Positions 2,092-64,000 of a stretch of DNA of 64,000 nucleotides are shown in pieces (the stretch's first letter is position 1; each line of letters opens with the position of its first letter). The notes under the pieces are model-generated. The model had not been told where the DNA came from. It saw only the letters and a program-made list of their open reading frames with translations, and did no database searches. This DNA is from Kiritimatiellia bacterium (GTDB lineage: Bacteria > Verrucomicrobiota > Kiritimatiellia > RFP12 > UBA1067), in the NCBI GenBank assembly GCA_017525225.1, contig JAFXTB010000048.1:8799-72798 (forward strand), read 5' to 3'. A program made the translations under genes and the position numbers.

Positions 2092-4668
2092 ATGAAAAAC
2101 AAGCACTCCATTCTCAAGGGTATTTCGTTCGGCCTTGCGGCGGCGGCGTTGTGCGCAGCGGCCGCAGATCTCGGCGCAGGCAGGCCGTTGCCGCCGGACA
2201 GGCGTCCGTACGAGTTCAGGAACGCCGGGCGCGACAAAGACGACGTGGCGCCGCTTGTCGATTTCGAGGACGGGCGGGCGTGGCGGGCAACCGCCGCCGA
2301 AGCGGAGGCCTTCTGCGAGATCACGCAGGAGGAGCAGCTTTTCGGGACGAACACCTTGAGGCTTTCGTATTGCGGGAAGGGGGTGTCGCCCCGGGTGTCG
2401 ATCATTCCGCCAAAGCCTGTCGCGCTGCCGGAGACGTTTGACACCATGTACGTATGGGTCATGGGCAACCATTTCGGAACTGGCGGCAATACGGACTTCA
2501 GCATACCCAATTCGGAACTGTTCGCTGTATTTCGCGGCGCGCAGGGCGAAGAGGTGAAGATGTCGCTTGCCAAGGTCGCCTGGCCGGACTGGCACCAGGT
2601 GAACCGACGCTTCACGGAGGCGGAGCGCGCGAAACTGGCAGGCGCGTCGTTTGCAGGGTTCGAGCTTTCCGGCGGCACGCAGACGCAAAGTCTGCAGATG
2701 CATTTCGACAACGTGGCCGTGTTCGTGGACGATCTCAAGACGCCGCTTGCCGTGAAACCGCGCGCGCGCCGCAATCTGAAGCCGCTTCCGGGCGCCGTAC
2801 AGGGCATCAACACGGGCGAGGGGCGGCTGCCTTTCCCGACAGGCGAGGACACGATAATCCCCAGAACCTCCGCGCCGGAGAAAGGCGACATGCTCGCGCA
2901 GTTCAACGGCGGCGCGGTGAAGAAGGACGAGTCTGCCAGCCTCAGGATGGACACCTGGCGGAAGGGGAAGTCGCTCGTGGTGGACTTCTACGCGGCTGCT
3001 GGAACCGTGACCGAAGTATCGGCGGGAACGGCCTGCGAGGCGAAGATCCTAAAGAGCTTCAAGGTTCCGTATCTTGCGTATGGCGACAGGGAAGGGCGGC
3101 TCAGGATCGATCTACTGGAAGGCGGCTGGTACCGCAGCGCGGTGTTCGACTGGTACCGGTCGAACGCCAGCACGCCGAGTTCTACCAACGGCGCGTTCAC
3201 GATGGTCTATCGTCCCAAAACCGATGGCACGTACAACCCGGTGAGCGAACGGCTCGTGATAACCGTGAGCCGCGACTTCGCGGAAGTCCTGCCGGAGATA
3301 CCCAATCCCGCCTCTCCGTACAAGGCTGTCACGGGGAAGAACGCATGGCGCGCCTACGGCAGCTTTGAACATGCGTACGACCGCGCATTCTGGCAGAAGG
3401 TGAAGGAGGCGGGCATCGAGCATGTGGTCGTCAACGACCATGAAACGATGTGGCGTGACAGGGGCGAGAGCTTCACGTTCCGGACGGAAGCCGCGCCTGG
3501 CCGTGGCGGCGACGCCGGGGCCGCGGAGTACTCGCGGTTCATGCGCGGTGAGCTGGGCTATGTGTACGGCCCGTACAACAACTACACGGACTTCTCGCCC
3601 ATGAACGCGCACTGGTCGCGCGATCGCGTGTCGCGCCTGGGCGACGGCAGGATGCTGTCCGCGTGGGTGCGCTGCTACGCGCCGAAACCAGTCTTCGCGC
3701 CGCAGATGTGCGAGGAGATCGTGCCGAAGGCGCAGGCGAAGTTTGCGTTCAACACGGCCTACTGCGACGTGCACACCGCGGTGACCCCATACAGCCGCAC
3801 GGACTACGATGCGCGCGTGCCGGGCGCGGCCACGTTCGCGCAGACGTTCTATGCCTGGGGCGAGCTGCTGCTCCTGCAGAAGAGGTTCTGGAACGGTCCT
3901 GTCTACTCCGAAGGCGGGCGGCAGTTCCTCTATTCCGGGCTTTCCGACGGCAACTATGCGCAGGACGGCGGCTACAACTTCCACGCGCAGCCGTGGATCG
4001 TGGATTTTGACATCCTGAAGATCCATCCGCTGGAATGCAACTTCGGCATGGGCACGCTCGCGATGTTCTCGCCCGGCAAGACGAAGGAGGAAATCCGCCG
4101 CCACAGGCCGCACACGCCTACGGAGAAGGCGCGCGACGAGCTTGTAGATCTGTTCCTCACGGCGACCGTCGCGTTCGGCCATGCGCCGTTCCTCGTGCTG
4201 GACTACTGCTTCGATCCGCCCAAGGCATTCGGTCCGGCATACCATGGGCCTACCAGGACCGTCATGGACAGAGGGCTGCCGGTGGCACTCAGGAGCTATG
4301 CGATGGTGCAGCCGATCGCCGCAATGTATACGCAGTCCGAGGCCAGGAGAATCCGCTACTTCGACGCTTCCGGCAGGATGCTCACGTCGTCGGAGGCGAT
4401 AGCCTCGGGCGATGTCGCGCGCAACCAGGTGTTCGTGGAGTATGCGGATGGCACCTGCGTGGTCGCCAACGGCAATGTGCGCGAGAGGCTGAAGGCCATG
4501 GTCGACGGGTGCGGTTGCGACGTGCCGCCGCGCGCGTTCAAGGCATGGACGAGAGACGGCAGCGTGCGGGCGGAGATTTCAGAGGATGCCGACGGCCGGC
4601 GCACGTATTTCAGCGACTGTCCGGAATTCACCTACAAGGACGGCAGGCTTGTGAAGAAGGCTCCATAG
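2092..4668 (+). CDS. large secreted hypothetical protein (858 aa), possibly carbohydrate-active
   Basis: N-terminal signal peptide MKNKHSILKGISFGLAAAALCAAAA. Long ORF with GC3-rich codon usage. No family motif recognised by eye. Confidence 0.7.
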   Translation: MKNKHSILKGISFGLAAAALCAAAADLGAGRPLPPDRRPYEFRNAGRDKDDVAPLVDFEDGRAWRATAAEAEAFCEITQEEQLFGTNTLRLSYCGKGVSPRVSIIPPKPVALPETFDTMYVWVMGNHFGTGGNTDFSIPNSELFAVFRGAQGEEVKMSLAKVAWPDWHQVNRRFTEAERAKLAGASFAGFELSGGTQTQSLQMHFDNVAVFVDDLKTPLAVKPRARRNLKPLPGAVQGINTGEGRLPFPTGEDTIIPRTSAPEKGDMLAQFNGGAVKKDESASLRMDTWRKGKSLVVDFYAAAGTVTEVSAGTACEAKILKSFKVPYLAYGDREGRLRIDLLEGGWYRSAVFDWYRSNASTPSSTNGAFTMVYRPKTDGTYNPVSERLVITVSRDFAEVLPEIPNPASPYKAVTGKNAWRAYGSFEHAYDRAFWQKVKEAGIEHVVVNDHETMWRDRGESFTFRTEAAPGRGGDAGAAEYSRFMRGELGYVYGPYNNYTDFSPMNAHWSRDRVSRLGDGRMLSAWVRCYAPKPVFAPQMCEEIVPKAQAKFAFNTAYCDVHTAVTPYSRTDYDARVPGAATFAQTFYAWGELLLLQKRFWNGPVYSEGGRQFLYSGLSDGNYAQDGGYNFHAQPWIVDFDILKIHPLECNFGMGTLAMFSPGKTKEEIRRHRPHTPTEKARDELVDLFLTATVAFGHAPFLVLDYCFDPPKAFGPAYHGPTRTVMDRGLPVALRSYAMVQPIAAMYTQSEARRIRYFDASGRMLTSSEAIASGDVARNQVFVEYADGTCVVANGNVRERLKAMVDGCGCDVPPRAFKAWTRDGSVRAEISEDADGRRTYFSDCPEFTYKDGRLVKKAP

Positions 4669-4680
4669 CGTCGACAACTG

Positions 4681-4709
4681 TTGCGCTAACGGTGCAAGTA
4701 TGGTAAAAT
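4681..4709 (+). promoter_or_regulatory. sigma70-like promoter TTGCGC-17-TGgTAAAAT (extended -10)
   Basis: TTGCGC 4681-4686, 17-nt spacer, TG-extended TAAAAT 4704-4709 in an AT-rich island upstream of gene 4776. Confidence 0.45.
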
Positions 4710-4715
4710 CTCCGC

Positions 4716-4734
4716 CATGGCGCACTGCGCCATG
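4716..4734 (+). promoter_or_regulatory. perfect 9-bp inverted repeat CATGGCGCA-c-TGCGCCATG at the predicted transcription start (candidate operator or 5' stem-loop)
   Basis: Arms 4716-4724 and 4726-4734 are exact reverse complements. Lies 7 nt downstream of the -10 hexamer, i.e. +1..+19. Confidence 0.5.
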
Positions 4735-4775
4735 CAGACGGTTTTCAAGGAAACAAAAAAGGAAGGAAAGAGAAA

Positions 4776-5846
4776 ATGGCGAAGGTTAGGTATGCCATCA
4801 TCGGGTTCGGCGGCATCGCCGAGAACCGTGTGGCGAAGGAAGGGTATGCCTGCGACAGAAAGCGGTTCAAACCCTTGAAGAAAGCGGTCCTCACGGGTGC
4901 GACGGACGTCAATCCAGCCCGGCAGGCGGCGGCCGAGGCGCTCGGGCTCAAGTGGTACAAGGACGCGGCGGAGGTGTTCGCCGATCCTTCCGTGGACGCC
5001 GTGTACATCGCCACGAACAACGCCTCACACGCCAAGATCGCCATCGCGGCCCTCAAGGCCGGCAAGCACGTCATAAGCGAAAAGCCCATGGCGACGTCCG
5101 TCGCGGACGCGAAGACGATGGACAGGATCGCCCGCGCCAAGGGGCTCTCGCTCACCGTGGACCACATGATGGTCCACAACGCCTGGAACGTGGCGGCGGC
5201 CAAGGCCGTGCAGGGCGGCAAGCTCGGCAAGGTCAACGACGGGTGCTTCCACATGGAGTTCGCCTACGGCTACGATCCTGCCGAGGCGGCCACCTGGCGC
5301 TGCTCGAAGGTGGAGGAGATGGGCGGACCCATCGGCGACGTGGCGAGCCATTGCTTCTACGTGGCGGAATACGTCTTCGGCAAGCGCATCGCAAAGGTGG
5401 CGGCCGTGTACTACCCCAAGATCATGAAGATCAAGGCGGAGGATGGCGCGTACATAAAGTACTTCTTCGAGGATGGCACGCAGGGCAGCGTCAACGCGGC
5501 GTTCAGCGAGCTGCGCGGCGGCCTCGCCGGCACGCTCACGAACCTCGGCTTCGAGGTCTACGGCGACAAGGCGGCGCTGCGTTCCTACGGCACGATGTTC
5601 CAGCTCTCCGGATATGACGACGAGCCCATCCGCCAGAGGCTCGAGCTCGACGACGGCCGCACCGTAGCGGCCATCAAGCCGGCGAAGATCCAGAACGTAT
5701 ACCAGACGCTCATCGAGGGCCACGCGGCCTCGATACTGGCGAAGAAGCCGCTTACGGGCGCGGATGCGATCCACAACCTCGCGCTGTGCGCGGCGGCGCA
5801 CGAGTCCGCGAAGAAGGGCGGCAGGACGATCACGGTCAGGCTGTAG
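4776..5846 (+). CDS. Gfo/Idh/MocA-family NAD(P)-dependent oxidoreductase
   Basis: N-terminal Rossmann MAKVRYAIIGFGGIAENR, then EKP motif (VISEKPMATS), typical of the Gfo/Idh/MocA family. SD-like AAGGAAGGAAAGAG upstream. Confidence 0.85.
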   Translation: MAKVRYAIIGFGGIAENRVAKEGYACDRKRFKPLKKAVLTGATDVNPARQAAAEALGLKWYKDAAEVFADPSVDAVYIATNNASHAKIAIAALKAGKHVISEKPMATSVADAKTMDRIARAKGLSLTVDHMMVHNAWNVAAAKAVQGGKLGKVNDGCFHMEFAYGYDPAEAATWRCSKVEEMGGPIGDVASHCFYVAEYVFGKRIAKVAAVYYPKIMKIKAEDGAYIKYFFEDGTQGSVNAAFSELRGGLAGTLTNLGFEVYGDKAALRSYGTMFQLSGYDDEPIRQRLELDDGRTVAAIKPAKIQNVYQTLIEGHAASILAKKPLTGADAIHNLALCAAAHESAKKGGRTITVRL

Positions 5847-5872
5847 AAGTTGAAATGGAAGAGGAAGAAACA

Positions 5873-7378
5873 ATGAAGAAGCTTGCAATGGCATCGGCGG
5901 CCGCGCTGTGCGCGGCGACCGTGGCGGGGGATTTCAAGGCGGGGTTCTCCCGCGTGGACATCACGCCTCCGCTCGGTTCGTTCATGCCCGGGTACTACAA
6001 GGACCGCAGGGCGAAGGAGGTGCTCGACCCCCTGACGATCAACTGCGTGGCGTTCTCGGACGGCGCCAAGACGGCGCTCGTGATGCAGTTCGACACCGAG
6101 GCGCTGTCGGACTCCGTGGCAGACAAGATGCGCGACGCCGTGGCGAAGGCGACGGGTGTCGATCGGGACGCCATGCTTCTGCACGCATCGCACACGCATG
6201 ACGGCGCGTACCTCGCTATGAAGACGGACAATGGCTCCGCCTCCTCTGCGAAGGTCGGCGACGACGGAGTGCCGAGCAACGCCACGAAGCTGGACATGAT
6301 CTATGTGGACATGTGCGTGACGCGCGCGGCGGACGCCGCCGTGGAGGCCATCCGCGACCTCAAGCCCGCGAAACTCTCCTACCAGCGCTCGGAGGCGAAG
6401 CGGATATCGTTCGGCCGCAGGTATCTGATGAAGGATGGCAAGGTGCGCACTAACCCCGGCACCAACAACCCCGACATCGTCAAGCCGGCCGGCATTCCGC
6501 CGGACGAGGAGGTGCAGCTGCTGCGCATCGACCGCGATGGCGGCAAGCCGATCTGCATGATCAACTTCCAGACGCACCCGGACGTTGTGGGTGGCGAGAC
6601 GATCACGGCGGACTGGCCCGGCCTGACGCGCACGGTCTTCGAGGCGGCCACGCTCGGCAAGACGCACTGCATCGTCATAAACGGCACGCAGGGCGACGTG
6701 AACCACTGCAACGTGATGCCCAAGCCGGGCGAGCTCAACGGCCTGAAGCGCGACTTCGACGCCGTGGACCGCGGCTACGATCATGCGTGGCACATGGCGA
6801 ACGTGCTTGCCGCCGCGGCGCTCTCCAAGTGGATGAAGTGCATCCCGCTCGAGGCGGGCCCCATCAGGTTCGCCACGAGGAACGTGCGCGTGCCCGCCCA
6901 CAAGGCCAAGGACTCGGACGAGAAGAACCTCGCCTGGGCGAACGACGTCTGGAAGCTTCACGCGAAGGCGGAGAAGGACGGCGTCGCTGGCACTCCCAAG
7001 GACTACGTGACCATCAAGTACGGATGGGCGGACATGGAGCTGACGACCGAGGTCGCGCGCGCCGGGCGCATCCGCCGCATGGCGAAGCACTCCGACTACC
7101 ACGACCTGCCGATCTACGGGGTCGCCATCGGCAAGTCGCTCGCGTTCGGCGGATTCCAGGGAGAGCCGTTCAACGACATCGGCAAGGCCGTGAAGAAGGG
7201 GTCGCCCTTCACGCTCACGATCCTCTCGTGCCTGACCAACGGTAGCCGCGGCTATTTCCCGTTCTCCGATGCCTACGTGGGCGGCGGGTACGAGTCGGCC
7301 ACGTCGCCGTTCGGTCCAACCGTGGCCGACGACCTCATCGCGGGGCAGCTTAAATTGTTGGGTGAATTGGCAAAATAG
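5873..7378 (+). CDS. secreted neutral/alkaline (non-lysosomal) ceramidase-like N-terminal-domain protein
   Basis: Signal peptide MKKLAMASAAALCAATVAG. SRVDITPPLGSFMPGYY ... LLHASHTHDGAY resembles bacterial neutral ceramidase (GRSDITGP...MLAATHTHSGP). Start chosen at ATG 5873 (GAGGAAG SD) rather than track start 5786. Confidence 0.65.
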   Translation: MKKLAMASAAALCAATVAGDFKAGFSRVDITPPLGSFMPGYYKDRRAKEVLDPLTINCVAFSDGAKTALVMQFDTEALSDSVADKMRDAVAKATGVDRDAMLLHASHTHDGAYLAMKTDNGSASSAKVGDDGVPSNATKLDMIYVDMCVTRAADAAVEAIRDLKPAKLSYQRSEAKRISFGRRYLMKDGKVRTNPGTNNPDIVKPAGIPPDEEVQLLRIDRDGGKPICMINFQTHPDVVGGETITADWPGLTRTVFEAATLGKTHCIVINGTQGDVNHCNVMPKPGELNGLKRDFDAVDRGYDHAWHMANVLAAAALSKWMKCIPLEAGPIRFATRNVRVPAHKAKDSDEKNLAWANDVWKLHAKAEKDGVAGTPKDYVTIKYGWADMELTTEVARAGRIRRMAKHSDYHDLPIYGVAIGKSLAFGGFQGEPFNDIGKAVKKGSPFTLTILSCLTNGSRGYFPFSDAYVGGGYESATSPFGPTVADDLIAGQLKLLGELAK

Positions 7379-7402
7379 GTCTGAAAGGTTTGTTTCGGCT
7401 AG

Positions 7403-7436
7403 CCAACTAACCAACTACCAACAAACCAACTACCAA
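7403..7436 (+). repeat. CCAACTA direct repeats (x4, imperfect) in the leader of the aldolase gene
   Basis: ccaactaaccaactaccaacaaaccaactaccaa read directly. C/A-rich, no SD nearby except a weak AGGAA. Confidence 0.6.
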
Positions 7437-7458
7437 TGTCCCAACAGGAATCAATAAA

Positions 7459-8316: not shown

Positions 8317-8381
8317 CCGAGAAGGCCATGTGCCTAGACTTCCTGGAAGGAAGACCACAGCCCGTGGCGACACACAACCCC

Positions 8382-8410
8382 TTGCCTTTGGGCGAGGGGT
8401 TTGCTATAAT
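8382..8410 (+). promoter_or_regulatory. sigma70-like promoter TTGCCT-17-TATAAT, 6 nt before ATG 8417 (leaderless-type)
   Basis: TTGCCT 8382-8387, 17-nt spacer, TATAAT 8405-8410, ATG 8417, no SD. Confidence 0.5.
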
Positions 8411-8416
8411 CGCCGC

Positions 8417-10264
8417 ATGGCAAAAAACACGAATTCCCGCAAGGTCCGCATCACCGACACCACCCTGCGCGACGCCCACCAGTCCCTCTGGGCCACGCGC
8501 ATGCGTACGGACGACATCCTCGCCATAGCCGAAAAGATAGATTCGGCCGGCTACTATTCACTTGAATGCTGGGGCGGCGCCACGTTCGACGTGTGCATGC
8601 GCTTCCTGCGCGAAAACCCGTGGGAGAGGCTCCGCCGCATCAAGGCGGTATGCCGCCGCACCCCGCTGCAGATGCTGCTCAGGGGCCAGAACATCCTCGG
8701 CTACAAGCATTATCCGGACGACGTGGTGGACCGTTTCGTGGCGCTTGCGTGCGAGAACGGCATGGACATATTCCGCGTCTTCGACGCGCTCAACGACCCG
8801 CGCAACCTCGAGACGGCCATCCGCGCCGTCAAGAAGTACGGCGGCCACGCGCAGGGCACGATCAGCTACACCACCTCGCCCGTACATACCGTGGAGTCGT
8901 ACGTGGCGCTCGCGAGGGAGCAGGCGGCGATGGGCATCGATTCGCTCGCGATCAAGGACATGGCGGGCATACTCACGCCCGGCGCCGCGCGCGAGCTCGT
9001 AGGCGCGCTCGTGAAGGCCCTGCCCGACATGCCGATCCAGGTGCACTCCCACATGACGAGCGGCATGGCGGCCGCGATGTACATGGCCGCCGTGGAGGCC
9101 GGCGCGGGATGCGTGGACACCGCGATCTCCACGCTGTCATCCTTCTCCTCACAGCCGCCTTGCGAATCGGTGATGACGATTCTCGAGTCGGAGGGCTTCG
9201 ATACCGGCCTAGACCGCGCCGTGCTGGGGGAAATCAACGCCTACTTCATGGATCTGAAGAAGAAGCGCCAGCCGGCGTCGTCCGCAAGGGTCGAGGCCGT
9301 GGATGCCGGCGTGCTGGTGCATGCGATCCCCGGCGGCATGATCTCCAACCTGCGCAGCCAGCTGGCACAGCAGGGTGCGCTGGACCGTCTGGACGACGTG
9401 CTGGCGGAACTGCCCAGGACGCGCGCCGACATGGGCTATCCGCCCCTGGTCACGCCAACCTCGCAGATCGTGGGCGTACAGAGCGTACTGAACGTACTTT
9501 CCGGCCGGCGCTACTCAATGGTCACCGACGAGACCAGGCACTACGCCGCCGGATACTACGGCCGTACGCCAGCGCCCATCGACAGGAAGCTGAGGAAGAA
9601 GCTGATGGGCGACCTGAAGCCGATAGACTGCCGTCCCGCGGACCTTCTTAAGCCAGGCCTCTCCGCGGCGGCGGACGAGATCCCCGCAAAGCTCATCCAG
9701 GCCGAGGAGGACATTCTCTCCTACTGCCTGTTCCCGGAGGTCGCGCTGGACTTCTTCAAATGGCGCGCCAAGCCCGAGGGTGAGCGCGATCCGATTCCTG
9801 CAGATCTGGAGATGCAGAAGGCCGAGGCGGAAAAGGCCGCCGCGCCCGCCCTGGACGAGCAGACGGCGAAGTTCGCCAGCATCGGAAGGGCTTTCGCTTC
9901 TCTGATGGCCGCATGCGGCGGCACGGGTGATCTTAACGGCCTTAACGGCACTAACGGCGTTAATGGCCTTAACGGCGCTGATGTTCAGGAGGCCGGTGAG
10001 TCCAAGAAGGAACCTGAGGATCAGATTCCCGCCGGCGAGCCGGTTCTGGCACCTCTCAACGGCACGTTCTACCGCAGCGCAGGGCCGGGCAAGCCGGAAC
10101 TGGCCGCCGACGGCGCCACAGTGAAGGCTGGCGAGCCGTGCTGCATCGTCGAGGCGATGAAGCTCTTCAACCCGATCAAGGCGCCTGTCGCGGGGAAGAT
10201 CACCTTCCTCGTGAAGCATGGCACGGTCGTGGTCAAGGGCCAGACACTGGCCGTGGTGGCATGA
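8417..10264 (+). CDS. biotin-dependent carboxyltransferase: oxaloacetate decarboxylase alpha subunit / pyruvate carboxylase subunit B-like (5S carboxyltransferase + biotinyl domain)
   Basis: MAKNTNSRKVRITDTTLRDAHQSL (HMGL-like TIM-barrel start) and a C-terminal biotinyl domain with the EAMKLFNPI (AMK) biotinylation motif. Real start ATG 8417 rather than track start 8189. Confidence 0.85.
   Translation: MAKNTNSRKVRITDTTLRDAHQSLWATRMRTDDILAIAEKIDSAGYYSLECWGGATFDVCMRFLRENPWERLRRIKAVCRRTPLQMLLRGQNILGYKHYPDDVVDRFVALACENGMDIFRVFDALNDPRNLETAIRAVKKYGGHAQGTISYTTSPVHTVESYVALAREQAAMGIDSLAIKDMAGILTPGAARELVGALVKALPDMPIQVHSHMTSGMAAAMYMAAVEAGAGCVDTAISTLSSFSSQPPCESVMTILESEGFDTGLDRAVLGEINAYFMDLKKKRQPASSARVEAVDAGVLVHAIPGGMISNLRSQLAQQGALDRLDDVLAELPRTRADMGYPPLVTPTSQIVGVQSVLNVLSGRRYSMVTDETRHYAAGYYGRTPAPIDRKLRKKLMGDLKPIDCRPADLLKPGLSAAADEIPAKLIQAEEDILSYCLFPEVALDFFKWRAKPEGERDPIPADLEMQKAEAEKAAAPALDEQTAKFASIGRAFASLMAACGGTGDLNGLNGTNGVNGLNGADVQEAGESKKEPEDQIPAGEPVLAPLNGTFYRSAGPGKPELAADGATVKAGEPCCIVEAMKLFNPIKAPVAGKITFLVKHGTVVVKGQTLAVVA
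9932..9976 (+). repeat. 5 x 9-bp in-frame tandem repeat (CTTAACGGC-like) encoding an LNG/TNG/VNG linker before the biotinyl domain
   Basis: cttaacggc cttaacggc actaacggc gttaatggc cttaacggc read directly, encoding GDLNGLNGTNGVNGLNGAD. Confidence 0.8.
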
Positions 10265-18020: not shown

Positions 18021-18054
18021 TGCGGTCGGGGATTGACCGCAAGGCGCTGTTTTG
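18021..18054 (+). terminator. candidate rho-independent terminator after the giant pectinolytic gene (TGCGGTC-loop-GACCGCA followed by a T-run)
   Basis: 7-bp stem 18021-18027 / 18035-18041, TTTT at 18050-18053. Overlaps the -35 of the next promoter. Confidence 0.35.
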
Positions 18055-18061
18055 ATATAGT
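18033..18061 (+). promoter_or_regulatory. sigma70-like promoter TTGACC-17-TATAGT followed by a 5'-leader hairpin (GCCGTCG...CGACGGC 18065-18097)
   Basis: Hexamers read directly. Inverted repeat 18065-18071 / 18091-18097 with a nested GGCA/TGCC. Confidence 0.45.
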
Positions 18062-18115
18062 ATCGCCGTCGTTCGGCATGGGGTGCCGGGCGACGGCAAG
18101 GAAAGGCATACACAC

Positions 18116-20001: not shown

Positions 20002-21189
20002 ATGTTCAAAAGACATCTCAAGACAGGGCAGAGATCGGCCGTCGCTGTAGCGGCGGTGTCCGCGGCCATGCTTCTGCCTGCCGGTGAACTGCCGGTCGTC
20101 GACCTGAGCGGCGATGCCAGCCGGCATGCCGTCATCGCCGCCGGAACGGAAAAGGACTACCAGGGACATCCGACGACGGTGCTGACGCCGGACGGACGCA
20201 TCATCGCCGTCTGGTGCACGCCTCACGGCGGATGGTGTGGCCCGGCGGCGGAGAGCGCAGATGGCGGGAAGACATGGACGCGCATAGACGGCCGTTTCCC
20301 GGAGGGTTTCCGTCGCCATGTGAACTGCCCGAGCATATACCGCCTGGAAGGCCCCGACGGCAAGGCGCGGATCTGGACATGGAGCCAGGTGAAGATGCCG
20401 CCAGACGCGAAGGACCATGACGACCACCGCGAGCGGGGCGAGCCGATGCCGTCCGTCATGAGCGAGGACGAAGGGCGTACGTGGAGGGAGATGCCGCCCT
20501 TGGGCGCGAAGTTCCGCTGCGTGATGGCCTTCGCCTCCATCGTGCGCCTGAAGGACGGTTCGTACCTCGGCATGTTCCACGCCGGTCCCGGTGGCGCCGA
20601 TAGGCCGCCTCTCAAGGTCTGGCAGTCCGTCACAAGGGACGGAGGATTCACATGGAGCGATCCCGTCCTCGTGGCGTCCGTAGAGGGCAAGAACCTATGC
20701 GAGCCTTATGTGTTCCGTTCGCCGGATGGCGGCGAGCTTTGCTGCCTCATGCGCGAAAACACGCACAAGGGGTGTTCGATGATGATGTTCTCGCAGGACG
20801 ACGGCCGCACATGGTCGGTGCCCGAGGATTCTCCCTGGGGGCTCACGGGCGATCGGCATCAAGGTGTTCAGCTGCCCGACGGGCGGTTCGTGGTGGCGTT
20901 CCGCGACATGGCGCCGAAGTCGCCGACGCGCGGGCATTTCGTTGCGTGGGTTGGACCCTACGCCGCGATCAGATCACGCGAGAAGAAGGGTACCTATCGC
21001 ATCAAGCTGCTTCACAACTATGCCGGCGTGGACTGCGGCTATCCCGGTATACACCTCCTGCCGGACGGCACCATCATCGCGACGACATACGTCAAGTACT
21101 GGAACGACGCCAGGCAGCAGTCGGTAGTCTCCACGCGCTTCCGGGTGGAAGAGACTGACAGGCGCATCATGTTGCAAACCGGTCCATGA
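20002..21189 (+). CDS. secreted BNR/Asp-box repeat sialidase-like glycoside hydrolase
   Basis: Four Asp-boxes ([32 protein letters not shown]), signal peptide [37 protein letters not shown]. No clear RIP motif, so the sialidase assignment is moderate. Confidence 0.65.
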
Positions 21190-21200
21190 TGGTGTATAAT
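21172..21200 (+). promoter_or_regulatory. sigma70-like promoter TTGCAA-17-TATAAT upstream of the mutarotase-symporter gene
   Basis: TTGCAA 21172-21177, 17-nt spacer, TATAAT 21195-21200. Confidence 0.5.
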
Positions 21201-21234
21201 GCCGTCCGTGTCAGTTGTCCAAGAGAGATTCAAG

Positions 21235-31172: not shown

Positions 31173-31202
31173 TTGCGGATTCATGCGGGAATTTGGTATA
31201 AT
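31173..31202 (+). promoter_or_regulatory. sigma70-like promoter TTGCGG-18-TGgTATAAT, 7 nt before ATG 31210 (leaderless-type)
   Basis: TTGCGG 31173-31178, TATAAT 31197-31202 with upstream TG, ATG 31210. Confidence 0.5.
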
Positions 31203-31209
31203 GGCCCAC

Positions 31210-32106
31210 ATGAAAACCAAGAAACTTGAAGGGTTGGTCGCAGCGGCGCATACGCCGTTCGCGAAGGACGGTTCGGTGGACGTGGATCAGGTGCCCCGCC
31301 AGGCGGCGGCGCTCCTGAAGCAGAAGGTGATCGGCGCATACGTGTGCGGCACCACGGGCGAGGGCATATCCTGCTCTGTCGAGGAACGCAAGGCTGTGAT
31401 GGCGGCCTGGGCGCGCGCGGCGAAGGGGAAGCTCTTCCTCATCGCACACACGGGCGCGCTCGGCCTCACCGACGCGCAGGAGCTGGGGGCGTACGCCGAG
31501 GAGCTCGGATATGACGCCGTATCGGTGGTGCCGGCAAACTACTTCAAGCCTGGCTCCGTAGCGACGCTCGTCGACTACCTCAACGCCGCGCTTGAAGGCT
31601 GCCGCAATACGCCGTTCTACTACTACCACACCGGCATGAGCGGAATCCATCTCGACATGCAGCAGTTCCTCGAGAAGGCCGACGGCCGCATCCCCAACCT
31701 TGCCGGCATCAAGTTCAACTATCCCGACCTCTACATGTACCAGCGCTGCATGCGCTGCTGCGGCGGCAAATACGACATCACGTGGGGGATCGACGAATGG
31801 TTCGCTGGCGCAGTGGCCTGCGGCGCGAAGAGCGCCATCGGCTCCACATACAACTACGCCGCCCCGATATACACCCGCATAGCCGAGGCCGTGCGAAAGG
31901 GCGACCTGAAGGCGGCCGAGAAGGGCATGAAGAAGGTGTGCGACATCGTGGACATCCTCGTGCAGTACGGCGGCGTGGCCGCCGGCAAGACGATGATGGC
32001 CGTGCACGGGATGGACCTGGGCGACGTTCGCCTGCCGTGCGTGCCGCTTACGGCGGCGCAGAAGGCCGACTGCATCGCGCGACTCCGCAAGATAGGCTAC
32101 CGCTGA
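31210..32106 (+). CDS. N-acetylneuraminate lyase / dihydrodipicolinate synthase-family aldolase
   Basis: GTTGEG motif, Schiff-base lysine context AGIKFNYPD, 299 aa. Context: downstream of SGNH esterase, with sialidase and mutarotase-symporter nearby. Confidence 0.7.
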   Translation: MKTKKLEGLVAAAHTPFAKDGSVDVDQVPRQAAALLKQKVIGAYVCGTTGEGISCSVEERKAVMAAWARAAKGKLFLIAHTGALGLTDAQELGAYAEELGYDAVSVVPANYFKPGSVATLVDYLNAALEGCRNTPFYYYHTGMSGIHLDMQQFLEKADGRIPNLAGIKFNYPDLYMYQRCMRCCGGKYDITWGIDEWFAGAVACGAKSAIGSTYNYAAPIYTRIAEAVRKGDLKAAEKGMKKVCDIVDILVQYGGVAAGKTMMAVHGMDLGDVRLPCVPLTAAQKADCIARLRKIGYR

Positions 32107-42060: not shown

Positions 42061-42108
42061 GGTTGAAAAGTAGAAAGGTTGAAAGGTTGAAAAGTTGAAA
42101 GGTTGAAA
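42061..42108 (+). repeat. 6 tandem copies of GGTTGAAA(A) immediately after the giant-1 stop
   Basis: ggttgaaaag tagaaa ggttgaaa ggttgaaaa gttgaaa ggttgaaa read directly. Confidence 0.8.
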
Positions 42109-42174
42109 TTCCGCCGTCCGCGCTGGCGCTGGAATGTAAATGAGGATAAGTTTAATGAGGCAGTCGCAAAACCC

Positions 42175-49586: not shown

Positions 49587-49592
49587 TATAAT
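49587..49592 (+). promoter_or_regulatory. extended -10 element TGgTATAAT after giant 2
   Basis: ttttggtataat read directly. Weak -35. Confidence 0.3.
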
Positions 49593-60429: not shown

Positions 60430-60458
60430 TGGTAAAATGCACGCATCGGAACCGATGC
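60430..60458 (+). promoter_or_regulatory. extended -10 (TGgTAAAAT) followed by leader hairpin GCATCGG-AA-CCGATGC
   Basis: TAAAAT 60433-60438. Inverted repeat 60443-60449 / 60452-60458. Second small palindrome GCACGGCGTGC downstream. AAAGGA SD before ATG 60521. Confidence 0.35.
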
Positions 60459-60520: not shown

Positions 60521-61585
60521 ATGTCGGAGATTAGATTGAACAGGCGCGGTTTTCTCGGCACGGCCGCAGCGGCGTCCATCGGAGCGATGGCATCCGCCCC
60601 TGTCCATGCCGCTCAAGGACCGGCGGCCAGATTGCCGCTCCCCGAGGGGAAGATGTTCGAGGGCTTCGATGGCGCCTGGGCCGCCATGTTCACGCCTTTT
60701 GTGCGCGACGAGCGCATTGACGCACCTGTCAACTACGACATCATCCCGTCCATGGTGGAGTATTTCATCGCGAGAGGTCTCAAGGGTGTGTACCTTACCG
60801 GCTCCACGGGCGAGGGATTCCTCCTGTCACACGACGAACGCGTGCGGATATATAGGACGGTCGTCGGTGCGGCGAAGGGCCGGCTCAAGGTGATAGCGCA
60901 CATCGGCTGTTTCTCCACGGCCGATGCCGTGAAACTGGCTAAGGCCGCGGCGGACGCGGGTGTCGACTGGGTGAGCTCCGTAGCGCCTGTCTACTTCGGA
61001 CAGTCCTTCAAGGCCGCATACGACCACTACAAGATCGTCTCCGAGGCGACCGATCTCCCGTTCCTCGTCTATTCCGTAGGGAAGAAGATCGTCCCGGCGG
61101 AGGCGTTCGAGCTGATGAAGCTCAAGAACGTACACGGCATGAAGTACACGGGCCGCGACTACTTCGACTTCGGCTGCATGTGCCGCAAGCTTGAGGCGAC
61201 CGGCAAGAGTGCGATCTATTTTGCCGGGGCGGATGAGCAGGTTCTCAATGCTTACGCGACAGGGCGCTTCTCGGGCTGCATCGGCACCTCCGACAACTTC
61301 ATCCCGGGCATCTACGCGAAGATCTGCGAGCTTGCCGCGAAGAACGATTTCGCCGCCGCGGCCCCGTACCAGGAAAAGGCGTGCCGCCTCATAGAGATGC
61401 TCTTTGCCACTGCGGGGAACGATTCGCTTTGGAAGGCCGTGATGCGCTACATAGGCCTTGACTGTGGCTATGGGCGCAGACCTTCCGGACGGCCGTATAC
61501 CGAAGCGCTGTACGCGGAGCACTGCGCACGGCTCGCCGCGCTTGGCGAGGATGTCGTTCGAAAGGACGACGCGAAGTTCATATAG
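60521..61585 (+). CDS. TAT-signal-bearing DHDPS/NAL-family aldolase (putative exported N-acetylneuraminate-lyase-like enzyme)
   Basis: Twin-arginine N-terminus NRRGFLGTAAAASIGAMASAPVHA. GSTGEG motif. Candidate Schiff-base lysine in VHGMKYTGRD. Confidence 0.65.
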   Translation: MSEIRLNRRGFLGTAAAASIGAMASAPVHAAQGPAARLPLPEGKMFEGFDGAWAAMFTPFVRDERIDAPVNYDIIPSMVEYFIARGLKGVYLTGSTGEGFLLSHDERVRIYRTVVGAAKGRLKVIAHIGCFSTADAVKLAKAAADAGVDWVSSVAPVYFGQSFKAAYDHYKIVSEATDLPFLVYSVGKKIVPAEAFELMKLKNVHGMKYTGRDYFDFGCMCRKLEATGKSAIYFAGADEQVLNAYATGRFSGCIGTSDNFIPGIYAKICELAAKNDFAAAAPYQEKACRLIEMLFATAGNDSLWKAVMRYIGLDCGYGRRPSGRPYTEALYAEHCARLAALGEDVVRKDDAKFI

Positions 61586-61615
61586 CCGTACGGGTATGAA
61601 CTCTTAGCTTTCGGC

Positions 61616-61644
61616 TTGCCAGCGGGGGTGGGACATGGTATCAT
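61616..61644 (+). promoter_or_regulatory. sigma70-like promoter TTGCCA-17-TATCAT, 6 nt before ATG 61651 (leaderless-type)
   Basis: TTGCCA 61616-61621, TATCAT 61639-61644, ATG 61651. 8-bp palindrome CCGTACGG at 61586-61593 upstream. Confidence 0.4.
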
Positions 61645-61650
61645 CATGCC

Positions 61651-64000
61651 ATGAAAAAAGTCCTATGTCTCGGTTGCGCCTCCCTGGCGGCGATGGTATT
61701 CGGCCGTTCGGTGTCGCTTGACTGGCGGAAGGGCGGCGATCAGCCCGTCGAGGTGATCGACTTCGGCCCGCAGACCGTGGGTGGCTACGCCGTCTTCGAA
61801 GTGGCAGATTTCACATCCGCTGCCGATGGTACTCTTCCCGTGCTGCGGCTCTCCTACGCGACCCACCCGGACGGCCTCTCGCCCGCCGGCGACTTCTCTC
61901 GCGAGACCCACGCGACCTACCTGCACGTGGACAACCCGGTCCTGCCCGCGAACATCAACCGCCACGAACTCTACACGATTCCGCGCAAGGGCCAGTTCGT
62001 CGCGCCGCTTCTCCAGGGACAGGAACGCTACATACGCGTGGCGCTCGACACGCCCGGCACCTCGCTCCGCCTCTCCTCGTTTGATATCGTGAACGCGGGC
62101 GTCTATTCGGAGGTGCCCGCGGTCGGGTCGTTCGCGTGCAACGACCCGCGCGCGAAGGCCGTGTGGGACATGGGCGCGCGCACGTGCCAGCTTGCCTCGA
62201 TCCCGAACGCCGACGCCTGGCGCGTGGTGGCGGACGTGCTGATCCCGCGCAAGCTTGAGAGGGGATCCGCCGATGGCTGGTGCCGCTTTGTGCCGAATTT
62301 CGAGGGCACGTTGGAGGTCACGTACGAGTTCCGCCTCAACCCGCATTTCCCGAATGGCGCCTTCAAGGTGTTCACCGGGTGGCTCAACGCCGAGCCCGAC
62401 GTACTTGAGACGATCAAGCAGGAGGGACCGGATGGCGTAATCAAGACGGCGAACATTCCGCTCAAGCCTGGCCGGTTCGGATTCCGTCTCGCGAAGGAGG
62501 AATGGCCGATGATCCATTCCGTCGTGGTGAAGGACAAGGCCGGCAAGGAACGGTGGCGCGACGATTTCACGGACGCGCCGTCCGGCAAGGCCGTCAACTG
62601 GGTCTACACGACTGCGATCCCGTACCTTGCCGACGGCGGCAAGCGCGACCGTCTCGTGTGGAGCGGCGACCTCTGGTGGGCGCAGCGCATGGTGTACTAC
62701 GCGTTCGGTCCGAAGGATCCCTACCTCGCGGGCGCGCTCCGTCTGTTGGCCTTCAACCAGACGCCCGAGGGATACTGCCACGCCGCGCCCTATGCCGAGA
62801 ACACCGTGAAGCCGATGTCGGGTGACTACGGATCCTTCGCCTCGGACGAGTTCTCCGCCTGGCTCGTGCCCTGCGCGTGGGAACACTACCTCTTCACCGG
62901 CGACGAGACGCTCGCGCGCGAGCTCTGGCCGGCGGTCGACCGCGACCTGTGCTACCTGGCCTCGCGCATGGGCGACGACGGACTCTTCGCGCCACGGTTC
63001 GAGACGTCGAAACACGCCATGCGGATGGACTGCGGCGACGTGCGCAAGCGCGTGTACCAGAACGTCATCTTCTGGATGTGCTGGCGCGACGGCGCGAAGC
63101 TCGCCCGCGCGCTGGGACACGCCGCGCGCGCGGACGAACTGCAAGGGATGGCCGATCGCCACGCGCAGGCGATCCGCGCCCGCTTCAAGGACCCAACCAC
63201 GGGGAAGTGGAACACGGTCCTCGGCGCGAAGGGCGCGGACGGCGCGAGCTGTGCCATGATGCTCGCGAGCGGCTTCGCGACACGCGATGAGGCGATTTCG
63301 CTCGCGCGTACCTGCTGGCATGTTGGCGTAGGTAAGTTCCAGTCGCTCGTGGCACGCGGCAAGTTCCGCTACGGCTTCACGCAGGGTGGCCTGCGCGCGA
63401 TCTCGGACGGCAACTGGCACTCGTTCATCGACCCCAGCTGGAAGGGTGCGCGGTGCTGTACGGAGTGCATGTACCTCACGACGAAGGGTTGGTGGGATGA
63501 ATCGCATCCCGATACGACAATTTCCGGCCTCTATACGGGCCACCTGCTCGGCGTGGAACCGGTCGAGCCCGGCTTTCGCGTCTTTACGATCGCTCCGCAG
63601 ATGGCGCCGTCCATCACGCGCGCAGAGGGTGTGGTGCCTACGCCCCATGGCAACATCGAGGTGGCATGGCGGTGCACGGGCGGCACGCTGACCATCGACT
63701 TCACGGTTCCCGAAGGGACTGTGGCAGATGTCGCCAGTGGGCTGGGAACGGGTCCACGCCGGTATGGCCCCGGACGCTATTCCTTCACGCGTGAGGTGCC
63801 ACCCGAGGAACTGGTCGATCCCACGCTTGACGCAGGCGTGGCCAAGGGACCGCAGACGCGCGAATTCGGCTTCGTCACGTCCCAGCCTTTTACCGACCCG
63901 GCGGCGCGTTACATCCAGACATTTGACCTGGACGAGGTCGTCTCGGTCGATTCCGTGACGCTCTTCCCTTCGGGAGAGGGTTTCCCAGACACGGTGGTGA
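61651..64000 (+). CDS. secreted GH78-like alpha-L-rhamnosidase-family (six-hairpin) glycosidase, 3'-partial; runs off the window end
   Basis: Own translation from ATG 61651 shows no stop to 64000 (783 codons), hence absent from the track. Signal peptide MKKVLCLGCASLAAMVFG. DGGKRDRLVWSGDLWWAQ matches the GH78 D-x3-R-[ED]-R-x2-W-x-G-D block. GC3-rich codons. The overlapping minus ORF 61663..63648 is an Arg-rich shadow. Confidence 0.65.
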   Translation, partial: MKKVLCLGCASLAAMVFGRSVSLDWRKGGDQPVEVIDFGPQTVGGYAVFEVADFTSAADGTLPVLRLSYATHPDGLSPAGDFSRETHATYLHVDNPVLPANINRHELYTIPRKGQFVAPLLQGQERYIRVALDTPGTSLRLSSFDIVNAGVYSEVPAVGSFACNDPRAKAVWDMGARTCQLASIPNADAWRVVADVLIPRKLERGSADGWCRFVPNFEGTLEVTYEFRLNPHFPNGAFKVFTGWLNAEPDVLETIKQEGPDGVIKTANIPLKPGRFGFRLAKEEWPMIHSVVVKDKAGKERWRDDFTDAPSGKAVNWVYTTAIPYLADGGKRDRLVWSGDLWWAQRMVYYAFGPKDPYLAGALRLLAFNQTPEGYCHAAPYAENTVKPMSGDYGSFASDEFSAWLVPCAWEHYLFTGDETLARELWPAVDRDLCYLASRMGDDGLFAPRFETSKHAMRMDCGDVRKRVYQNVIFWMCWRDGAKLARALGHAARADELQGMADRHAQAIRARFKDPTTGKWNTVLGAKGADGASCAMMLASGFATRDEAISLARTCWHVGVGKFQSLVARGKFRYGFTQGGLRAISDGNWHSFIDPSWKGARCCTECMYLTTKGWWDESHPDTTISGLYTGHLLGVEPVEPGFRVFTIAPQMAPSITRAEGVVPTPHGNIEVAWRCTGGTLTIDFTVPEGTVADVASGLGTGPRRYGPGRYSFTREVPPEELVDPTLDAGVAKGPQTREFGFVTSQPFTDPAARYIQTFDLDEVVSVDSVTLFPSGEGFPDTVV

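Follow-up and report, generated by a model that had tools for sequence, protein, structure and literature searches.

A 19-bp palindrome at the promoter of a Kiritimatiellae-like oxidoreductase gene is probably the DNA image of a 5'-terminal mRNA stem-loop

A base-paired 5' terminus is a classic protection against 5'-end-dependent decay. Operators can also occupy the start of a transcription unit, and those that overlap +1 include roadblock sites of the lac O1 type, with repressors of the LacI, GntR or ROK families. The stem-loops known to stabilise mRNA from a 5'-terminal position include those in the ompA and papA leaders of E. coli (Emory, Bouvet & Belasco 1992, as cited in PMC3997798). In E. 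coli, 5' secondary structure stabilises mRNA, and both RppH and RNase E need single-stranded 5' ends; the RppH of B. subtilis likewise prefers single-stranded 5' ends and requires two or more unpaired 5' nucleotides (PMC3997798). This requirement explains why 5' stem-loops, among them the ompA and papA examples, stabilise their mRNAs, as has long been known (PMC3997798).

A palindrome in a comparable position was analysed in a 64,000-nucleotide stretch of DNA, referred to throughout as the window. The first-pass annotation had described an exact 19-bp inverted repeat directly downstream of an extended -10, at +1 to +19 of the promoter of an oxidoreductase gene, and had proposed that it is a repressor operator, with a 5'-terminal stem-loop in the mRNA as the alternative. 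Direct reading showed the sequence to be exactly as described, with arms CATGGCGCA (4716-4724) and TGCGCCATG (4726-4734) on either side of a single C at 4725. The features of the locus are as follows.

2092-4668: upstream ORF of 858 aa, with no Pfam or NCBIfam match, ending 48 nt before the palindrome
4681-4686, + strand: -35-like hexamer TTGCGC, with a 17-nt spacer to the -10 hexamer
4701-4709, + strand: extended -10 TGgTAAAAT (hexamer TAAAAT at 4704-4709), with equivalents in orthologous loci
4705-4745, + strand: imperfect inverted-repeat extension of the palindrome (A-tract, stem, T-tract), with 20-nt arms AAAATCTCCGCCATGGCGCA and TGCGCCATGCAGACGGTTTT that are 75% complementary
4716-4717, + strand: predicted transcription start, C4716 or A4717, 7-8 nt past the -10 hexamer
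4716-4734, + strand: perfect palindrome of 19 bp, read directly; as RNA, a stem of 8 bp closed by a loop of 3 nt, with pairing from nucleotide 1
4735-4775, + strand: rest of the leader, purine-rich and mostly unstructured, with Shine-Dalgarno-like AAGGAAGG at 4759-4766
4776-5846, + strand: Gfo/Idh/MocA family oxidoreductase gene, 356 aa (Pfam PF01408, PF22725 and PF02894)

The palindrome begins 6 nt past TGgTAAAAT, and the leader of the oxidoreductase gene totals ~60 nt. The encoded protein scores under every NCBIfam equivalog cut-off. Its homologues in metagenomes number more than 1000, many of them at 80-91% identity, and one relative (82% identical) is named as coming from a Kiritimatiellae MAG. 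A domain scan of the immediate neighbours identified enzymes or unknowns and no regulator gene, as had been noted in the first-pass annotation. An Rfam scan of positions 4400-5000 (E <= 10) returned malK-I as its sole match, at chance level (14.7 bits against a gathering score of 60.3, E = 4.1).

Orthologous loci, taken from JGI metagenomes and from contigs encoding individual homologues, were compared with the window. A strict sigma-70 consensus scan (4000-6000) called no promoter, because TTGCGC fits TTGACA at only three of six positions; support for the promoter comes from two sources, the extended -10 and its conservation. Across orthologous Kiritimatiellae-like contigs the conserved form is TTG-N17-TGNTAAAAT. 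The TTG of the -35 recurs at equal spacing, mostly as TTGAAA, and TGNTA(A/G)AAT is found at the equivalent place in L090, L102/103/105, L096-98, L093/94/44, L047, L052, L054, L064, L088 and L051; L049 has TGATAAAAT in the -10 place. The shared architecture is TTG(A/C)NN, ~17 nt, TG-N-TA(A/G)AAT and then a leader of 53-64 nt. These leaders end in a conserved purine-rich block with AAAGGA(G) ahead of ATGGC, and a block of the form (T)TTTCAA..AACAA..AAAGGAA is common to the window, L090, L102, L093 and L096. The window, L105, L093, L096 and L099 differ in their upstream neighbour gene, and homology between the window and L105 begins just 5' of the -35. Since the promoter is conserved despite these differing neighbours, promoter, leader and gene behave as one unit. 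Comparison of orthologous loci thus supports the promoter call of the first-pass annotation, with its extended -10.

The spacing from the -10 to the predicted start was calibrated on candidate leaderless genes in the window. In these genes an extended -10 (TGcTATAAT, TGgTATAAT, TGgTATCAT or TGgTAGAAT) is separated by only 6-7 nt from the ATG of a long ORF, too short a distance to hold a Shine-Dalgarno sequence.

1998-2030, - strand: candidate leaderless gene with ATG 1998, HAD hydrolase, domain from residue 12
8382-8419: candidate leaderless gene with ATG 8417, carboxylase subunit
21170-21210: possible further candidate leaderless gene
31173-31212: candidate leaderless gene with ATG 31210, DHDPS family, domain from residue 6
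~61615-61653: candidate leaderless gene with ATG 61651, rhamnosidase-like, with a signal-peptide-like N-terminus

The domain boundaries of the DHDPS and HAD hydrolase genes agree with these starts. Such genes are probably transcribed as leaderless mRNAs, which would seem to be frequent in the host genome. The candidate leaderless ATGs lie 7-8 nt past the extended -10. If these mRNAs are leaderless, RNA polymerase in the host would start 7-8 nt beyond the -10 hexamer, which would put the +1 of the oxidoreductase gene at C4716 or A4717 (A4717 when calibrated on these ATGs), base 1 or 2 of the stem. The palindrome therefore begins at the start predicted from -10 spacing, in keeping with its annotated position of +1 to +19. 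In L090/L102, and in a second example from the window at 18 kb, the potential for pairing extends ~3 nt ahead of the predicted +1. At the oxidoreductase promoter it does so by way of an internal loop, with CCG 4712-4714 pairing with CGG 4739-4741.

Some of these intergenic regions have further features. The PYC_OADA/HMGL-like carboxylase subunit has a mechanical ORF from TTG 8189 that overlaps the aldolase gene; its true start is likely ATG 8417, directly behind the promoter. A hairpin after the aldolase gene, AACCCCTTGCC-TTTG-GGCGAGGGGTT (8376-8401), extends over the -35 (TTGCCT) and spacer of the promoter that follows, as if one piece of DNA served as both terminator and promoter. Short tandem-like intergenic repeats occur as GGTTGAAA(A/G) units after the 1448-aa gene (42061-42110) and as CCAACTA/CCAACAAA units upstream of the aldolase gene (7400-7440).

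Taken alone, the palindrome is not beyond chance. Perfect inverted repeats with arms of at least 9 bp and loops of up to 8 nt were counted in the window and in Markov-1 random sequences of the same composition, giving three observed and 4.1 +/- 2.1 expected. The exact 19-mer, with up to three mismatches allowed, has a single site in the window against 0.1 expected. Its arms have no perfect extension (C4715 stands opposite C4735), and the imperfect extension at 4705-4745 can form only in RNA reading through from upstream. Because the palindrome is uninformative alone, its meaning must come from position and comparison. It is considered non-random because it is placed right after the -10 and because its pairing is conserved in relatives.

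The RNA of the palindrome has a predicted fold of -12.8 kcal/mol (z -2.3), or -10.5 kcal/mol if the transcript begins at A4717. Read-through RNA with the extended hairpin is predicted to fold at -17.8 kcal/mol, and UUUU follows. A fold of the leader together with 55 nt of coding sequence contains the 5' hairpin and leaves the Shine-Dalgarno region unpaired, so the hairpin should not block translation. The AUG and the next few codons take part in a long-range helix with the coding region that is predicted to be weak.

Among the orthologous loci, the sequence of the palindrome is kept only in L043, which encodes a 99% identical protein. Its pairing is more widely distributed, and three hairpin versions can be distinguished in the near clade.

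Version 1, window and L043: CATGGCGCA-C-TGCGCCATG
Version 2, L090 (87% protein identity over the available part): CATGGCAAA-TTTTGGG-TTTGCCGTG
Version 3, L102/L103/L105 (90% protein identity): CACGGCAGA-TTTTGGG-TTTGCCGTG

All nine base pairs are retained in all three versions, with an arm identity between close orthologues of 6-7 out of 9 (two to three of the nine positions changed per arm) and a centre of 1 nt in the window versus 7 nt in L090 and L102/103/105. Three pairs covary, partly through G-U intermediates, and this covariation is based on only three distinct sequences. The 3' arms were out of register in the MAFFT alignment of the near clade, and the pairs were therefore tabulated by hand from individual folds.

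Pair 3: U-A in the window, U.G in L090, C-G in L102/103/105
Pair 7: G-C in the window, A-U in L090, A-U in L102/103/105
Pair 8: C-G in the window, A-U in L090, G.U in L102/103/105

The G.U pairs correspond to A.C mismatches on the other strand, so that the pairing makes sense only for RNA of the + strand. All three versions are paired from nucleotide 1 in their folds and have predicted energies of -12.8 to -14.0 kcal/mol (z -2.3 to -2.6). Pairing that is kept while sequence and spacing change fits an RNA stem and not the operator of a dimeric repressor.

Other orthologues carry different structures or none. In L093/94 (90-91% identity) and L096-98 (89%), hairpins of unrelated sequence (-10.2 to -12.4 kcal/mol) start 1-3 nt from the predicted +1. 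Single-sequence z-scores among the orthologues are modest (-0.9 to -2.7). Three close orthologues (L104, L091 and L100) have neither promoter nor hairpin, which indicates that the element is dispensable; the upstream region of L104 is unrelated. L091 (2930-3006) has the same upstream gene end and distal leader as L102 (1-138) and L105 (361-540) and is without ~52 nt that include the hairpin's 5' arm as well as the promoter. The gap resembles a deletion between the repeats TTGCGT and TTGCCGT. In orthologues of 79-83% identity (L047, L052, L054, L064, L088, L051 and L049), the leader has its hairpin farther in, at ~+17 to +35, instead of at the 5' end. GCTTC recurs as the 3' arm of these hairpins (for example GAAGCG-TCA-CGCTTC and GAGGGGC-GAA-GCTCCTC), and GCC(A/G)TTTTT is conserved at the predicted start. 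The hairpins were identified from single-sequence folds, as RNAalifold gave no consensus structure for the leaders of this clade because of an alignment problem.

Hairpins in the same position were also found at two other promoters in the window.

18053-18061: extended -10 TGaTATAGT, then hairpin GCCGTCGTTCGGCA-TGGGG-TGCCGGGCGACGGC at 18065-18097
60430-60438: extended -10 TGgTAAAAT, then a structure from 60445, paired from nucleotide 1 (-23.7 kcal/mol, z -2.8)

A fold begun at 18068 gives the 18-kb hairpin -20.6 kcal/mol (z -4.7); its first nucleotide is already paired, and two of its pairs are U.G. Shine-Dalgarno-like AAGGAAAGG and ATG 18116 come after it. Neither the 18-kb nor the 60-kb hairpin is related in sequence to the palindrome at 4716-4734. 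At a fourth promoter (TGgTATAAT, near 49590) the palindrome is weak, with just 5 bp, and the fold is not more stable than expected by chance (z +0.5). That three differing palindromes occupy one promoter-relative position speaks more for a general leader design than for three separate repressors. The NanA/DapA-type lyase domain of ORF 60521-61585 starts at residue 50; this ORF has either an N-terminal extension or a true start farther downstream, which would give a longer leader.

On balance, and with modest confidence, we read the palindrome as encoding a stem-loop with which the oxidoreductase mRNA begins, probably a stabiliser that protects against decay. The stem is stable, and what is maintained is pairing rather than sequence, both in the three near-clade versions and in the unrelated hairpins of L093/94 and L096-98. 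The alternative raised in the first-pass annotation is thereby favoured over its main proposal. Transcription would start at ~C4716/A4717 from an extended -10 promoter of the sigma-70 type, TTGCGC-N17-TGgTAAAAT. The first 18-19 nt of the RNA would form a G+C-rich hairpin of 7-8 bp without an unpaired 5' nucleotide, and a purine-rich open leader of ~40 nt would then carry the ribosome binding site. The likeliest role of the hairpin would be to shield the 5' end from 5'-end-dependent decay and so to lengthen the lifetime of the transcript. It appears to be one instance of a common leader design in the host, not a gene-specific switch. The analysis shows the sequence, its fold, a conserved promoter and pairing that persists although sequence and loop change; the start site, the formation of the hairpin in vivo and its stabilising function are all things that we infer.

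We regard it as unlikely that the palindrome has no function and arose by chance or neutrally, for example through local duplication around the self-complementary core CGCCATGGCG. The chance-level frequency of perfect inverted repeats in the window would agree with such an origin, as would a 10-nt direct repeat (CTCCGCCATG / CTGCGCCATG, 15 nt apart) that overlaps the palindrome and the existence of close orthologues without any hairpin. A neutral sequence, however, is at odds with three covarying pairs that preserve pairing in relatives and with independent hairpins in the same place in other orthologues and at the two other window promoters.

The operator reading, in which a dimeric transcription factor would bind the 19-bp palindrome over +1 and block initiation or elongation, is quite improbable. 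Perfect dyad symmetry does lie right behind the -10, in a site that overlaps the promoter or predicted +1, and the three near-clade versions agree at the six outermost positions of each arm (CAYGGC / GCCRTG). These conserved outer blocks nevertheless stand either 7 or 13 nt apart, and the bases farther inside the arms differ, so that neither half-site sequence nor spacing is conserved at orthologous promoters. A dimeric DNA-binding protein would lose its site through a 6-bp change in spacing combined with altered half-site bases, changes that are neutral for an RNA stem. The G.U-type asymmetries in L090 and L102 also argue against an operator, as do the unrelated sequences that L093/94, L096-98 and the two other window promoters have in that place.

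Searches for a regulon led to the same assessment. The rest of the window contains no further copy of the palindrome at up to three mismatches, and no second copy occurs in 237 kb of related contigs. A relaxed motif, CAYGGC-N5-15-GCCRTG, has three matches in the window against ~0.6 expected, namely the palindrome and two sites in coding DNA (4158 and 30093); in the 237 kb of related contigs its matches are confined to the orthologous hairpins and to one of these coding sites in its L043 copy. In a collection of 185,579 species genomes (one genome per species), the exact palindrome with a free centre base has 42 scattered matches, including Zoogloea, Paraburkholderia and Collinsella, and none in Kiritimatiellota genomes, a distribution that lends no support to a regulon. 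With no regulator among the scanned neighbours either, the proposed operator or roadblock and its regulon are not borne out.

A translational role is very unlikely. The stem could hide an AUG at +1/+2 (4717) from leaderless initiation, or its 3' arm could compete with the true start region. ATG 4717 shares the exact geometry of the candidate leaderless genes, 7-8 nt past the extended -10, and CTGCGCCAT in the 3' arm is complementary to ATGGCGAAG at 4776-4784. Yet the ATG is ACG in L102/L103/L105, though the hairpin is kept there, and the ORF from 4717 is out of frame in the window and in frame in L090. The predicted fold also keeps the 5' hairpin, and the 3' arm is not paired with the start codon. 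As a gene, the upstream ORF from ATG 4717 was rejected, since neither its frame nor its start codon is conserved. In a wider version of this idea, which we hold to be speculative and give little credence, 5' hairpins on leadered mRNAs would serve systematically both to shield the 5' end and to block leaderless-style initiation at a +1 AUG; the window stem does bury the AUG at 4717. If this were true, the hairpin would be a marker separating leadered from leaderless transcripts.

It is highly improbable that the extended repeat at 4705-4745 is an intrinsic terminator or a 3'-end protecting hairpin for the upstream 858-aa gene: the read-through hairpin is followed by UUUU, and the interval from 4668 to the promoter showed no other hairpin resembling a terminator, but a terminator scan of 4000-6000 (G+C-rich stem followed directly by a U-run of at least 5 in 8) called none, with only four T in the tract; the T-run is 6-7 nt away from the stem in L090/L102; the upstream gene is divergent in L096-98, so the hairpin there is not the terminator of a co-directional upstream gene; and the 18-kb example has a separate terminator-like hairpin and T-run upstream of its promoter.

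These results matter little beyond annotation. For a highly conserved oxidoreductase gene from uncultured Kiritimatiellae of the gut or rumen type, they provide a promoter and 5' UTR model supported by comparison, and they suggest that these bacteria have two mRNA designs, one leaderless and one leadered with a 5' hairpin. They also remove a candidate operator and its regulon from the list of things worth chasing.

Compared with known systems, the locus resembles a Rho-independent terminator in lying beyond the end of a gene and in having a G+C-rich hairpin with an A-tract on one side and a short T-tract on the other. Unlike such terminators, it has four T only, in a run that does not adjoin the perfect stem and is not conserved beside the stem in relatives, and it overlaps a conserved promoter. 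With operators that overlap +1 it shares a dyad symmetry of ~19 bp immediately downstream of the -10, whereas its half-sites and spacing vary among orthologous promoters and neither regulon copies nor a nearby regulator were found. It differs from the ompA and papA stabilisers in that it is a perfect DNA palindrome with a 1-nt centre, the innermost pair of which is impossible in RNA, and in that the start site and the effect on half-life are here predicted from sequence, in a Kiritimatiellae-like bacterium. Like those stabilisers, it has a stable hairpin at the predicted 5' end or within 1-2 nucleotides of it, followed by an open leader with a ribosome binding site, and its sequence varies while its pairing is kept. 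On this reading the palindrome is an ordinary member of a well-known kind of element.
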